Assembly: GCA_049852185.1 (NCBI GenBank)
Contig: CP187540.1
DNA: 64,000 nt
Reading direction: 5' to 3' (one strand)
Source of the DNA: Methanocaldococcus sp. 28A
GTDB lineage: Archaea > AGJL01 > Methanococci > Methanococcales > Methanocaldococcaceae
The notes beneath the pieces were generated by a model. It made no database searches, was not told where the DNA came from, and worked only from the letters and a program-made list of their open reading frames with translations. Both the position numbers and the translations under genes were made by a program. This document shows positions 27,312-45,823 of the stretch, in pieces. Position 1 is the first letter of the stretch. The number at the start of each line of letters is the position of its first letter.

Positions 27312-28451
27312 TTACTTTTCACTTATAAACAATGGTGGCAAGCTATCATCAACACCAGGAACATAACCAAAGGTATCTCTAATCTTCAACTGCATTCTGT
27401 GGAATATATATGCAAGTGGAATATCCATTGGGCAGACATCTTCGCATTGCCCACAATTTATACAGCTTTGAGATATATGGCTCAATCTAATCCCCTGGAA
27501 CATTAAAGGATTTGGCGGGATTTTTCCTTTTTCATTAATATAATCTTTCTCTAATCTACATTCAACACAGAAGCAGAGTGGGCAGTTATCTCTACAACCA
27601 TAACACTTTATACACCTATTCCAATATTTCTGCCACTCTTTAAGGTTTGGATATTCATCTTCCAAATGTATTTTTTGGAATTTTTTAGCCAACTTTATCA
27701 TGACATTCTCTATTTTCTCCCTAATTTGAATTGCCTTTTCTGAAGGTTCTTTAATTTTGATATAGCCTTCTTTTTCAGCGTCCTCAACTAATTTTTTTCC
27801 TTTTTCTGAACAGATTTCAACAAACGTCCAGCCCTTTTCAGCTCCCCAATTTCCACAAGCTAAATCAGCCATTCTTGGAACCATAACTTCACATCTTTGG
27901 CAGTTTTTCCTTCTACCAAAACCTTTTTCTTCTAACTCATCTATTTTAACAGCTTTATGTTCTCCATTTTTTAATTCAATAATAAACTTCCCTTTATCTA
28001 TTTCTTCCTTAACAACATCTAATGGATTAACTTCATAAAACAACTCAATCATTTTCATAGCAGTTATTGGATTTATTGTCCCTCCACAATTCAAACCAAG
28101 CATATAGATGTTATCTAAGTTTACCTGGTTTAACTTTGCCAACTCTTTAATAGCCATAGCATCACATGGTTTAGTAGAGACGGCAATTTTTTTATCATTC
28201 AAATATTTACTAATTATCTTTCCAAAATTTGTTGGTGCACAGTGCAAAGAGCCTGCGGTTTCTACCAATTCATCAGAATTTGTTATAAATGCTGGAATTC
28301 CATCGTATATATCTTCTCCTCTCTTTAAAGCTAAAACTCCATCAACAAGCTTGTTATCTAATAAGTATTTGAATAATGCAGTTACTGCCCCACCACATTC
28401 TGCTTTCTTTAAAATTTCATTATCCGTAGCTTGGATTAATGCATATTTCAT
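27312..28451 (-). CDS. fdhB: F420-dependent formate dehydrogenase beta subunit family protein
   Basis: [49 protein letters not shown]. Confidence 0.9.
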
Positions 28452-29094
28452 AATACCACCTTAGTTATTTCTTTTTGAATGTCTTCTAATGAATTGAACC
28501 CTAAATCAATTCCAAGCTTTTCAGCTAAGCTTTTTATTATAAGATAATCATCCATAGCTTCTCCAGGAGGGTTTACAGCTTTGTTTATTTTTTGAATTCT
28601 TTTATCAGTGTTTGTAAAGGTTCCCTCTTTCTCAGCCCAACAAGTTGAGGGTAGAACTACATCAGCTAATTCAGCTGTTTCACTCATTATAATATCTTGG
28701 ACAACTAAAAATTCAGTATTTTTTAGTGCATCTTTATCAATTAAAGCAGGATTCTCTCCCATTATGTATAAGCACTTTGAATTTTTTAATAATTCAAGAT
28801 ATTTATCTTTATTTAGAGCAGGAATGCCAATAAGTGTGGCACCAACAGTGTTGCAGTGCTTAGCAACTGGCAAAACTTTAGCAATTTTAGGCATTTTATC
28901 AACATCTATTGGTGCATTGATTATAATAATAGTGTTTTCATCAACATTACCTAAATCAATATCCTCATAGCTATCAACCTTTACGAACTTGTCGGCATTT
29001 AATTTTAGGATATCTTTCTCCTCTATATTGAAAATTGTTACCTTAGCCCCTTTATCTTTTGCTTTAATAACTTTTCTTCCAATCAATGCATGTT
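28448..29094 (-). pseudogene. 5'-truncated molybdopterin oxidoreductase (FdhA-like, MJ0006-like)
   Basis: Has [28 protein letters not shown] but no N-terminal CxxCxxxC Fe-S domain; first ~14 residues of the 229-aa ORF come from the adjacent element. Confidence 0.75.
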
Positions 29095-29153
29095 GCCGTT
29101 TGGAACTGTTTAATTTTCCATAGACAAATATAGACATTTATAGATTTTCATTA

Positions 29154-29169
29154 CCGAAAGATTTATATG
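29154..29169 (+). promoter_or_regulatory. Archaeal BRE-TATA promoter
   Basis: CCGAAAG-ATTTATATG; predicted start at G ~29190, where a 13-bp stem begins. Confidence 0.65.
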
Positions 29170-29189
29170 TGGGTATATATAAGAAATAA

Positions 29190-29456
29190 GGATTATAACT
29201 GCCCCAGATGCGGGAGTAAAATGGAGTCCCAAGAGTGGCAGTTATTATCGAATATTAATTGATGGGAGGAGCTGGGGTTCTCTCGGAGCGAAGCGACGAG
29301 AACTTAAAAACCTTACGGTTTTTATGTCCATGACAGGGGTGGAGACCAATGATATGCTCCCGATGAACCCAGAGAGAGATGAGGCTGATGACGCCCAAGT
29401 CCAATATGGACGTTTGTCTATATTTGTCCATATTGGACAGACCCCTTCTTAATGGT
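29190..29456 (+). ncRNA. Putative structured GC-rich ncRNA (omegaRNA/HgcC-like)
   Basis: GC-rich island in an AT-rich genome; stems 29191-203/29237-249, 29277-82/29298-303, 29305-324, 29399-411/29426-438; several GATGA/CTGA motifs. Confidence 0.55.
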
Positions 29457-29497
29457 AAGAGAGAACAAAAACAAATATAGATTTAGATATAAATTAA

Positions 29498-30535
29498 TTA
29501 TTTGTTACTAATTTCCATAATTTTCTTTTTCATTGGAGGGGTTATAATTGGCTTTTCAGGGATTAAACCAGATGGCTTATAGTAAAGAATGAGAAGCATT
29601 AAAACTCCAAATAGCATATAGGATAGCCAAACCGGCTCAAATGGAATATTTAAGGTATATTTTAAATCATATTTATAAACATCTAATAATACTTTAACTA
29701 TAACATAACATAAAACCCCTAAAGCGACTCCTTTATTATTTCCTTTCCCTCCCAATAGAACCATTAAGAATGGGAAAAACGTCCATTCAACCCTTGTAAA
29801 TGCATTAGCAACTATATTTACTGTATATAAGGAATACAAAGCTCCTGCAATAGCACCAATTGCAGAACCAATTGCCATTGTTTTTATCCTCAACTTCATT
29901 ATGTCTCTACCAAATGCCTTAACAGTGTTTTCATTTTCTCTCATTGCTTTCAATATTCTCCCAAATGGAGTATTTAACAATCTTTCAAAGAATAAATAAA
30001 CTAAAAAGGCAATAAATAACACTATTCCTGTAAATACCCAACCTCTGTACTCCCCAGAGACAAACGCTAAGATATCTGGTGTTGATATTCCATAATAGCC
30101 ACCAATTATATTTAGATTATAAGTACAAACTAAAAGCACAGCTTCGCTTATAGCCAATAATGTAACCCCTAAATAATCCTCTTTTAACTTAGCACTTGGT
30201 AAAATAAAGATAGCTCCAACAATAAATCCTAAAATTGAGGCTAATACTATAGCTAATATTAAAATTCCTATCCCAACTAATGGATTTGAAGCAATTAAAT
30301 TATTTATCATAGATGTTGCATAAGTAGAGCCCTCAATCAACCCTCCTCCAACACCAAAATAAAGCATTAACAACCTATCTAAAATTCCTCCAACTGCAAT
30401 TGCCCCAACTAAAACAGACAAAGCTTTACCAAAGTTTGGGATTCCAGCATAACCAAATTCCATATTTAAGGATAATGATACTATATAATAGATACCAAAC
30501 CACAATAAGATTAAAGATATAAGCTCAACAATCAT
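29498..30535 (-). CDS. livM: Branched-chain amino acid ABC transporter permease
   Basis: SLNMEFGYAGIPNFG, PFGRILKAMRENE. Confidence 0.9.
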   Translation of the reverse strand: MIVELISLILLWFGIYYIVSLSLNMEFGYAGIPNFGKALSVLVGAIAVGGILDRLLMLYFGVGGGLIEGSTYATSMINNLIASNPLVGIGILILAIVLASILGFIVGAIFILPSAKLKEDYLGVTLLAISEAVLLVCTYNLNIIGGYYGISTPDILAFVSGEYRGWVFTGIVLFIAFLVYLFFERLLNTPFGRILKAMRENENTVKAFGRDIMKLRIKTMAIGSAIGAIAGALYSLYTVNIVANAFTRVEWTFFPFLMVLLGGKGNNKGVALGVLCYVIVKVLLDVYKYDLKYTLNIPFEPVWLSYMLFGVLMLLILYYKPSGLIPEKPIITPPMKKKIMEISNK

Positions 30536-32989: not shown

Positions 32990-33071
32990 TTTCTCCCCTT
33001 AATAAAATAATATTAGAGCAAAAAAATTTATCATTAACTTTATAAATGTAATACTTTATTTAAAGCTTTAA

Positions 33072-33329
33072 TGTTGTATCCTGAAATTATTTCGCACCTA
33101 TAATTCATGAAATCTCCTCAATATTATTAACGGTATTTTCGAAATAAACCTCATAAGGAGTCCTATAATCTAAAGAACGATGTGGTTTTATTTTATTATT
33201 CCAATCGGAGCGTAGCGGAGAGTTATGAAATCACATTAGTGATTTCATTCAAAGTATGAATTCTTCTAAACTAAATCTATCTAATCGATATTCAACCTCT
33301 TATTTATTCCGTTCAACTTTTCCTATGGC
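33072..33329 (-). mobile_element. IS481-family transposase remnant with terminal repeat
   Basis: Minus strand reads IGKVERNK*EVEYRLDRFSLEEFIL / WNNKIKPHRSLDYRTPYEVYF (integrase-core C-terminus); TGTTGTATCCTGAAATTATTTCGCAC end at 33072. Confidence 0.75.
33205..33248. repeat. ~45-bp miniature palindromic insert
   Basis: TCGGAGCGTAGCGGAGAG + hairpin ATGAAATCAC-atta-GTGATTTCAT; similar unit at 29283-29325. Confidence 0.6.
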
Positions 33330-33390
33330 AAGACTTTCACAGAAGTAAATATTGTAATGGATTTTTGATGTTTTTGGCATTATTTACACA
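33330..33390. repeat. Partial family A repeat
   Basis: AAGACTTTCACAG left end, GATG...GCAT interior, no right TIR. Confidence 0.5.
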
Positions 33391-33946
33391 ATATTAAATA
33401 GTCTGACAGTGTGAATTAACGAAAAGAATCTTAAAAGCAAAAAACAGAAATAGGATGAGGTTAAATAGTTTATTAAAAAAAGGTGATACCTATATGTTAG
33501 CAGCATTTAATGATATACTGGTTGATTCTATAAATAGTTTAGGGATATGTTCTTCGTATGGGGTGGTGAGGACATTAACGCCGATAAAGACGATTAAAGG
33601 GATGTCATAGTTAGAGATTGATAAAACTACATTTATTAAAAATCTACAAAAACCAGAAGATGAGTATTGCTTATATAATTCAGGTATCTAACCTTTCTGA
33701 TATTTTAGATAACGATAAATAAAAATTTATTGCGATAGTTGATTCAATGTGAGTAATTATCTAACCTCAAAAAGCAATATCGGTTTTGTTAAATTTGTAG
33801 CGATTATTCACAATTGTATTTTACAATAAATACAACACTTTCTATAAAGTAATTAAAAAGTGTAGTAGTGTTATAAAGAACTAATAAAGAATGAACTATC
33901 GTAATCACACCGTCAGTATTTTAATATAATTTTTAATGGTGAAATT

Positions 33947-45499: not shown

Positions 45500-45823
45500 G
45501 GTGTGCATGGCTTCCTTGGGGTGGGCATGTCCTCCAACCCTCTCTCGCCCCCAGACTCCTTCTCAGCCCCGCTTACCCGTGAGCGCCGACGTCCTGCCTA
45601 CCGTTGCTCCCTTCCGGGCCTGGCGGGGTTCGGCAGACAAAGGGGGTTACATCTCCCTTACAGGAGATGCTCCCCCACCGCCGAGCCCCACGGGACGAGG
45701 CATCATCGAGGAGTCTGGGAAGAGAGGGTTAGAGAACATGCCGCCCCCAAGTTTTCGGCCCCCGCATAAGGGCGATTTCGGGTTACAGGGGACGCCCAAC
45801 CCCCCGGCCTAGCCATGCACACC
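45500..45823 (-). ncRNA. ffs: Signal recognition particle (7S) RNA
   Basis: GC-rich; terminal helix GGTGTGCATGGCT/AGCCATGCACACC; helix 8 GCCAGGCCCGGAAGGGAGCAAC; TATA upstream, T-run downstream. Confidence 0.95.

Follow-up and report, generated by a model that had tools for sequence, protein, structure and literature searches.

The guide RNAs of TnpB have been located in the 3′ region of the tnpB gene, for TnpB in general (PMC8612924; PMC10055086). Gene-less elements known as PATEs, as described by Meers et al. in Geobacillus stearothermophilus, "often encode omegaRNAs" and need TnpB in trans (PMC10055086). IS607 transposition takes place at a fixed dinucleotide core, produces no duplication and involves short subterminal repeats, according to published accounts of this family and of the Clostridium CboIStron (PMC6188088; bioRxiv 10.1101/2023.11.20.567912). 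In Archaea, Gomes-Filho et al. (PMC4615843) report the sotRNAs, the PATE-derived VNG_R0052 of Halobacterium salinarum and HgcC (RF00062) as non-coding RNAs, detected as GC-rich or structured transcripts, which either overlap an IS1341-type tnpB gene at its 3′ end or originate from fused, gene-less ends.

We analysed a short structured locus of Methanocaldococcus sp. 28A, located in a stretch of 64,000 nucleotides (hereafter the window). Judging from its sequence, this locus is almost certainly a non-autonomous miniature derivative (MITE) of an insertion sequence of the IS607 family in which the guide-RNA scaffold has been retained. The PATE-like IS200/IS605 elements of PMC10055086 and this MITE resemble each other in being gene-less and in having kept both ends and a guide-RNA scaffold; in both cases TnpB and the transposase would come from other copies, and the guide from the flank past the right end. 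Unlike PATE-like elements, the MITE has an IS607-type parent that uses a serine recombinase, not a hairpin-guided Y1 transposase, and that has double-stranded DNA chemistry and a CC core; it resides in an archaeal host and carries its own tRNA-type BRE/TATA promoter instead of the deleted genes. Membership of the PATE (IS200/IS605) group was considered and rejected, the parents carrying a serine recombinase and not a Y1 (HUH) TnpA. With the CboIStron (bioRxiv 10.1101/2023.11.20.567912) and IS607 (PMC6188088), as these are described, the MITE shares a fixed dinucleotide present in both end and target, the lack of duplication, short repeated motifs at both ends and an omegaRNA that ends at the right end. 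The target-adjacent motif (TAM) includes the core dinucleotide in both systems, as TGGG in the Clostridium CboIStron (bioRxiv 10.1101/2023.11.20.567912) and as a candidate TGCC in the MITE. However, the CboIStron and IS607 are reported as full-length elements with tnpA and tnpB, the Clostridium one also containing a group I intron, whereas the MITE has neither gene, and their core is given as GG whereas that of the MITE reads CC on the RNA strand. The sotRNAs, VNG_R0052 and HgcC are archaeal, like the putative MITE RNA, but they originate from elements described as IS200/IS605-type (PMC4615843) and show no match in sequence or structure with the MITE; in particular, HgcC has no match on the MITE or on its parents. 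Among the titles and abstracts of the literature searched, none describes an IS607-derived omegaRNA MITE in Methanocaldococcus.

The element and its flanks comprise the following features. C1 is the main contig of the host genome (1.546 Mb), and A2 is an alignment of 19 rows (copies) from seven genomes.

27316–29097, minus strand: duplicate of 1782 bp containing fdhB and the 3′ part of fdhA, 99.94% identical to C1:1092142-1093923.
29094–29097, plus strand: TGCC, derived from the target, candidate TAM; the recombination core is its CC, also found as the terminal CC of the right end.
29098–29445, plus strand: non-autonomous IS607-derived element (MITE), GTTTGGAAC...GGACAGACCCC, from the alignment of genome copies and from empty sites.
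29098–29146, plus strand: left end with three ATAGAY motifs, candidate serine-transposase binding repeats, from the sequence.
29154–29169, plus strand: BRE/TATA promoter CCGAAA GA TTTATATG, with the BRE-like CCGAAA at 29154–29159 and TTTATATG at 29162–29169.
29439–29445, plus strand: 3′ tail AGACCCC, with which both scaffold and element end; GAC(C/T/A)CC in 16 of the 19 rows of A2.
29446–29465, plus strand: predicted guide TTCTTAATGGTAAGAGAGAA from flanking DNA, placed from the element boundary and assumed to be about 16–20 nt long.

The host is an AT-rich archaeon (about 30% G+C), and the GC-rich region pointed out in the initial annotation is readily apparent, with a G+C content of 0.47–0.51 over 29200–29450 against about 0.3 in the surroundings. 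Alignment of the copies delimits a repeated unit, ...(T/A)GCC|GTTTGRAAC ... TTGGACAGACCCC|, corresponding to 29098–29445 in the window. The MITE is thus 348 nt long, its exact frame being ambiguous by the 2-nt CC core, and differs from the unit of 29096–29480 first proposed; the TGCC on its left (29094–29097) derives from the target. A search of the genome returned seven further matches spanning at least 190 nt of the query. One of them, at C1:1226542-1226895, is 99% identical to the window MITE, which implies recent copying, and the other six show 72–83% identity. Many short fragments, solo left ends among them, are scattered elsewhere, and several copies are truncated or have no promoter. 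We built a covariance model (R1, 114 positions) from the 3′ half of 14 MITE copies. After removal of the reverse-strand hits produced by the palindromic stem, R1 identified 13 distinct loci in the host genome, and it found matches in 12 of the 17 genomes of the genus. The MITE has no transposase gene and is dispersed in multiple copies, in unrelated contexts and orientations. Its longest internal ORF encodes 58 amino acids, in agreement with the earlier statement that no protein gene remains, and no reading frame can be conserved since indels of 47 and 8–9 nt separate the copies.

The left end harbours the repeats ATAGAC, ATAGAC and ATAGAT at positions 29120, 29130 and 29140, with a spacing of exactly 10 bp, and the loop of the right-end hairpin contains two inverted motifs, ATGGAC and ATAGAC, with the same 10-bp spacing. 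Short repeated subterminal motifs are therefore present in both ends, as in IS607-type elements, and the left end shares 81–92% identity with its counterparts in tnpB or tnpA-tnpB elements. The longer motif GACAAATATAGACA (29123–29136) and its inverse TGTCTATATTTGTC (29415–29428) were recovered where the initial annotation had located them, and so were the BRE-TATA (29154–29169), the 12/13 stem, the perfect 13-bp stem (29399–29438) and the relic CPRCGSKM and MGGAGV codons. The partial motif ACAAATATAGA, which had been counted among the element-like ends, does exist at 29471–29481, but it lies in the flank and is not common to other copies. The complementarity between the loop motif and the left-end motif had been taken as a possible means of self-recognition by the RNA; the loop motif is better read as a putative inverted transposase-binding repeat, typical of IS607 ends.

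The sequence (T/A)GCC precedes 17 of the 19 aligned copies. An empty site, TTATT(A/G)-TGCC-AATC.., was found in 5/5 relatives examined for the copy at C1:1197678-1197967. The corresponding filled site reads ...TTATTA-TGCC, followed by the element (GTTTGAAA...GACAGACCCC, ending in ...GACCCC) and then by AATCTTC... For the window copy, the left flank has an intact paralogue, fdhA, with the sequence ATGTTGCC|CAAAAAC. TGCC can be assigned to the target DNA because of the five empty sites and the intact fdhA paralogue. In the compared junctions the insertion point follows TGCC and lies at a CC dinucleotide common to the element terminus, without target-site duplication, as in IS607 transposition. 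The empty-site search gave no readable junction for the copy at C1:1265341-1265666, relatives matching the distal part of the flank only, and no usable empty site for the copy at C1:1226542-1226895, the left flank of which is itself a high-copy 115-nt repeat. The reciprocal recombination product (the right end followed by CAAAAACATC) was not found among 26 right-end-like sites.

F420-type formate dehydrogenase genes adjoin the window MITE: the duplicate on its left, in which FrhB_FdhB and Molybdopterin domains (Pfam) were recognised, stops precisely at the junction between TGCC and the left end, and the intact fdhA runs on at the other locus and in relatives. On the right side, the two closest relatives are syntenic with the window only from 29488 onwards, and the gene that is neighbouring in the relatives is found about 90 kb away in the host genome. 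Because the duplicate ends at the left end and synteny breaks on the right, the window copy is, from these comparisons, located at a rearrangement junction, and its present right flank is not the original landing sequence. A permease gene occupies 29498–30535, and an outward MITE promoter would yield an RNA antisense to this gene.

Full-length relatives, composed of a left end, a serine-recombinase tnpA, tnpB and a right end, are present in related genomes of the genus, so that the search for copies and for a tnpA-tnpB parent was successful on both counts. Their first protein (208–214 amino acids) contains MerR-HTH and Resolvase domains (PF00239, 2.3e-24), and their TnpB (441–458 amino acids) contains PF07282 and PF01385. 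The left end of the MITE matches the full-length left ends and its RNA part matches their 3′ region module by module; the left end, zinc-finger region, C-terminal region and right end all align to tnpA(PF00239)-tnpB elements (L047, L048 and L050). The frame starting at 29200 spells C P R C G S K M E S Q E W Q, and further downstream ..V A V I I E Y * L M G G A G V. In tnpB genes of both the host genome and the full-length relatives, the aligned counterparts of CPRCGSKM and MGGAGV are the zinc-finger and the C-terminal codons, respectively. In full-length elements R1 aligns at the 3′ end over its entire length of 114 positions (77–85 bits), and the one difference is that their right-end hairpin has additional loop sequence, in which tnpB terminates. 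The derivation from an IS607/TnpB element proposed at the outset is thus borne out by left-end homology, by the alignment of tnpB codons and by R1. The alignments show that an internal deletion took out tnpA and most of tnpB. What was kept is shown to be the two ends and the 3′ portion of tnpB, with a tRNA-type BRE/TATA promoter about 30 nt before the first helix. The MITE RNA region derives from the tnpB 3′ end and reaches the right-end boundary, as is the case for omegaRNAs, and the retained portion is shown to be the site of the omegaRNA scaffold of the family in full-length elements.

A second TATA-like run is present at 29173–29183, near the BRE/TATA promoter. We found 12 instances of CGAAA-N2-3-TTTATAT in C1; two belong to the near-identical MITE copies, and 4 of the 10 others are located 47–51 nt before tRNA genes. 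The promoter noted earlier as a strong BRE-TATA is, by this match, of a rare tRNA-type of the host genome. The module is found at a fixed offset in 14 of the 19 copies, in seven genomes, the distance from the start of the TATA element to the core of helix 1 being about 38 nt, or 46–49 nt in a subfamily with a short insertion. A transcription start at about 29190–29192, at the foot of helix 1, is predicted from an archaeal promoter geometry that we presume to apply here. In the alignment, full-length elements have no promoter module at the corresponding place, and the module appears to be an acquisition of the MITE lineage. An origin of the promoter stretch inside tnpB (80% match over 26 nt) was also considered and dropped, as multiple alignments did not support it.

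The predicted RNA contains the following elements.

29191–29249, plus strand: helix 1, a 12/13 stem of GATTATAACTGCC (29191–29203) with GGCAGTTATTATC (29237–29249).
29212–29215 with 29227–29230, plus strand: inner hairpin of helix 1, GGGA/TCCC.
29266–29284, plus strand: helix 2, GAGG with TCTC, corresponding to the relic tnpB C-terminal codons "GGAGV".
29285–29331, plus strand: optional expansion of 47 nt, with the hairpin AAAAACC/GGTTTTT (29306–29312 with 29317–29323).
29336–29396, plus strand: helix 3, GGGG/GCCC and GACC/GGCT around the inner hairpin CTCCC/GAGAG (29357–29361 with 29374–29378).
29399–29438, plus strand: right-end hairpin, a perfect 13-bp stem (29399–29411 with 29426–29438) whose loop includes TGTCTATATTTGTC.

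The plus-strand RNA 29188–29446 folds at -85 kcal/mol (z = -3.6), and none of 200 shuffled sequences folds as well. The minus strand likewise does better than all of the shuffles (z = -4.8), and the strand can therefore not be deduced from folding energy alone. RNAalifold run on 14 copies predicted 33 pairs, 11 of which show compensatory changes. On the same alignment we counted the pairs of an eight-helix structure written by hand: it contains 53 pairs, and 89.9% of the cells are paired, as compared to 34–50% when the partners are slid. Double-sided changes affect 12 of the 53 pairs, against 6.1±1.6 in shuffles (12 being reached in 0 of 500) and 2–5 when slid; these covariation statistics are optimistic, the copies being related and the structure having been derived from them. 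The structured RNA claimed initially thus shows covariation, and a conserved secondary structure, as expected for an omegaRNA, is present by a standard that is lenient given the relatedness of the copies. The plus strand is favoured because G-U cells (49) outnumber A·C cells (21). A long-range pairing of CUGGGG with the 3′-terminal CCCC, seen in the single-sequence fold, has no covariation support in the alignment and was left out.

Individual helices allow inherited and retained pairings to be followed. Helix 1 is made of relic tnpB zinc-finger codons (29200–29241) and covaries synonymously between full-length subfamilies, TGC CCC...GGG CAG in one against TGT CCT...GGA CAG in the other. In MITE lineages, compensatory changes convert CUGCC/GGCAG to AUGCC/GGCAU in helix 1 and GGGA/UCCC to AGGU/ACCU in its inner hairpin, and in the MITE subfamilies with helix 1 compensatory changes the former zinc-finger frame now contains a stop. 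In helix 2, A-U is replaced by C-G in two distinct rows, G-U is found in six rows, and C-to-U changes retain pairing with G. The 47-nt expansion is optional in MITE copies and full-length elements alike (present in 8 of the 19 rows of A2 and in F632, absent from F1519). The GATGA/CTGA motifs, initially described as K-turn-like, lie within the helix 3 region; they are conserved, but in the parents they also match codons of the TnpB C-terminus that are themselves conserved. One subfamily has lost the inner hairpin of helix 3 on both arms at once, and in the window copy A29375 creates a C·A mismatch in helix 3 where the 99% identical copy has a G. The right-end hairpin shows double changes at three pairs and several G-U pairs; the same stem encloses about 40–70 more nucleotides in full-length elements, including the end of tnpB. 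The fold appears to be selected in the MITE itself, because stop-bearing lineages compensate, the hairpin arms are lost jointly and the C-to-U changes of helix 2 keep pairing.

Since the element ends at ...GACCCC (29445), its guide is predicted to start at 29446 (TTCTTAATGG...), directly after the tail and 11 nt before the start first suggested (29457, after TAATGG). For the copy at C1:1197678-1197967, the right flank AATCTTC... follows TGCC in relatives, which is the arrangement expected in silico of an omegaRNA guide beside its TAM. The window copy has lost its original joint, and its guide has six other genome matches at two mismatches or fewer (the best having two mismatches), none of them preceded by GCC.

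We then considered which proteins are available to such an RNA. A domain search for serine recombinase (PF00239) gave no hit in the host genome, where a 26-amino-acid tnpA remnant (C1:1012421-1012498) is all that is left; the one Y1 TnpA present is located beside an unrelated tnpB at C1:829-831 kb. The tnpB closest by its RNA module (C1:352 kb, 77 bits with R1) is a fragment of 240 amino acids. Two tnpB genes are intact (C1:632 kb and C1:1519 kb), with open frames of 419 and 447 amino acids, stop to stop; they are 59–64% identical to the cognate subfamily. R1 gave no match at E≤0.001 for the 3′ modules of these two genes; a sister remnant scores 42 bits. All TnpBs of the parent family carry [N/D]RQ instead of the DRD of ISDra2 TnpB, a glutamine thus occupying the position of the catalytic D361, and the RuvC-I aspartate and RuvC-II glutamate are kept. 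DNA cleavage by TnpB of the parent family is consequently not assured. Conserved catalytic substitutions have been described in archaeal TnpB branches linked to serine recombinases, and are read there as rearranged, still active sites (PMC10691335).

These observations can be assembled into the following model. The promoter would yield a scaffold RNA of roughly 255 nt starting near 29190, which would read through the right end into the flank and so gain a guide from 29446 onwards. TnpB from an autonomous relative would bind this RNA, and the complex would recognise TGCC plus the guide-matching sequence, that is, the empty donor joint left after excision by the serine transposase. Recognition would lead to repair from a filled copy and to retention of the MITE, which would then be a guide-RNA-only parasite of the IS607 machinery. 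We regard the full mechanism, from transcription of the RNA to its use by TnpB in trans for retention, as reasonably probable for the family and as less so for the window copy in its present host. The latter is probably inactive or idle in this genome, because tnpA is missing, the closest tnpB is broken and the right flank is rearranged. A bolder version, in which the element is a self-expressing hyperparasite of IS607 that traded its genes for a stable-RNA promoter and borrows TnpA and TnpB from autonomous copies (some of these on extrachromosomal contigs), its fold being still selected in genomes without the lost transposase, seems to us unlikely.

The main competitor of this guide-RNA model is an inert transposon fossil, a dead deletion derivative whose stems and promoter were inherited or arose by chance in an AT-rich genome and which makes no functional RNA. 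The state of the host genome, with no tnpA and a broken cognate tnpB, the divergence of most copies (72–83% identity), the truncation or lack of a promoter in several of them and the rearranged flank of the window copy are what a fossil would look like. A fossil would hardly be expected, however, to show compensatory changes within non-coding lineages, to lose both arms of a hairpin symmetrically, to retain, at one and the same offset in 14 of the 19 copies (seven genomes), a promoter type with only 12 instances in C1, or to include two copies 99% identical to each other. We consider this explanation possible but rather improbable. A different fate, still less probable and indeed quite unlikely, would be domestication as a guide RNA for a non-cutting, TldR-like TnpB directed to host DNA beside TGCC, where it would repress or mark genes. 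The glutamine at the RuvC-III aspartate position, the altered catalytic sites described for archaeal serine-recombinase-linked branches in PMC10691335 and the persistence of structurally intact MITE copies in genomes where the tnpA search found none are consistent with such a role. On the other hand, the RuvC-I aspartate and RuvC-II glutamate are kept, the same substitution occurs in mobile, tnpA-linked copies, and PMC10691335 itself reads conserved substitutions of this kind as rearranged but still active. Guides moreover differ at every copy and are not conserved between genomes, because insertion sites differ, and no second genomic target with a GCC motif was found. Assignment to a TldR-like nuclease-dead system was accordingly rejected, only the RuvC-III aspartate being replaced by glutamine, with guides not conserved and without a second target.

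It is also conceivable that the transposon ancestry is incidental and that the locus is another archaeal small RNA (C/D-box, H/ACA or HgcC-type) or a portable promoter for a neighbouring gene. The GATGA/CTGA motifs, a weak alignment to sR58 and the antisense RNA that an outward promoter would give against the permease gene at 29498–30535 could be invoked in its favour, but the sR58 score (14.4 bits, E = 2.7) is far under the gathering score of 55, and the copies, set in unrelated contexts and orientations, conserve the whole scaffold up to the element end, as expected of an omegaRNA. The initial annotation had thought of known Rfam classes, HgcC included, and no family matched: Rfam at E≤10 on 28900–29700 gave four chance-level matches only (Phe_leader, sR58, MIR8643 and ZNRD1-AS1), and on 11 related loci tRNAs and weak chance-level matches only. 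A genome-wide search with HgcC (RF00062) returned three hits, all outside the MITEs and under the threshold of 50, with at most 24.8 bits. We regard this last reading as highly improbable. The sole Rfam match at gathering thresholds in the whole window is the archaeal SRP RNA, at 45504–45819.

Should the RNA not be used, the locus would be an ordinary decaying transposon relic. If it is made and used, as in the guide-RNA model that we favour for the family, it would be a natural and compact example, from a hyperthermophilic archaeon, of an IS607 system in which guide and nuclease are separated. The locus offers a defined promoter, a scaffold of about 205–255 nt, a candidate TAM (TGCC) and natural scaffold variants, among which the optional 47-nt insertion and the hairpin deletion mark dispensable parts of the scaffold. 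It may serve as a test bed to ask whether a TnpB remains able to cut with a glutamine at the RuvC-III position, and how gene-less elements persist in genomes without transposase. Were the hyperparasite version true, it would imply either a continuing supply of protein in trans or a second, host-level role with the glutamine-bearing TnpB, based on binding and not on cutting.

The TGCC/left-end junction of the mini-element (the gene-less, IS607-derived MITE) is the exact end point of a duplicated fdhB-fdhA' segment, and a truncated fdhA' ORF (28448-29091) is left as a consequence of the duplicate ending there. The duplicate and a variable module within the element are as follows:

Window 27316-29097: duplicated 1782-bp segment holding the whole of fdhB and the 3' part of fdhA, 99.94% identical to C1:1092142-1093923 on the main contig of the source genome.
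Window 29285-29331: 47-nt module of two hairpins, one carrying GCGAAGC.

On the other side of the mini-element, comparison with the two closest relatives showed that synteny is broken at window 29446-29488. In both relatives, the permease gene (window 29498-30535) is followed by a gene beginning ATGATTATTAAAGG.., possibly leuD-like, and the counterpart of this gene in the source genome lies about 90 kb away, at C1:1046559-1048014.

The 47-nt module is present or absent in mini-elements and full-length elements alike, across several subfamilies, which suggests that copies recombine with one another or that the module is a tolerated expansion segment.

There are dozens of copies of a roughly 115-nt palindromic repeat in the source genome, and many in one close relative (72 matches, both strands counted). 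It adjoins or replaces the left end of two mini-element copies:

L002:1858-1972 (C1:1226899-1227010): palindromic repeat directly beside the 99% twin copy, at its left end.
C1:1513106-1513218: palindromic repeat standing where the copy at C1:1512830-1513107 would have its left end.

Several further dispersed repeat families occupy window 33060-33920 (approximately 33072-33337, 33403-33750 and 33665-33918), each with 5-15 copies elsewhere on C1 at 83-97% identity.

A single Rfam match reached the gathering threshold within the window:

Window 45504-45819, minus strand: archaeal SRP RNA (261 bits).

Elsewhere, at C1:695539-695620, there is a GC-rich sequence (..GCGGGTGGGACAGTAGTGAGCCCCCACC..) about 40 nt downstream of a further instance of the tRNA-type promoter motif; it is no tRNA and may be another stable RNA gene.

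In RuvC-III, every TnpB of this IS607 family (L013:1369-2625, L014:1258-2598, L050:1259-2581 and their relatives) reads (N/D)RQ rather than DRD, and the residue matching ISDra2 D361 is glutamine; the RuvC-I aspartate and RuvC-II glutamate are kept. One relative carries an intact tnpA-tnpB-omegaRNA element on its small second contig (G007:C2:9736-11703); if extrachromosomal, this contig could be a route by which the TnpA and TnpB proteins are supplied in trans.
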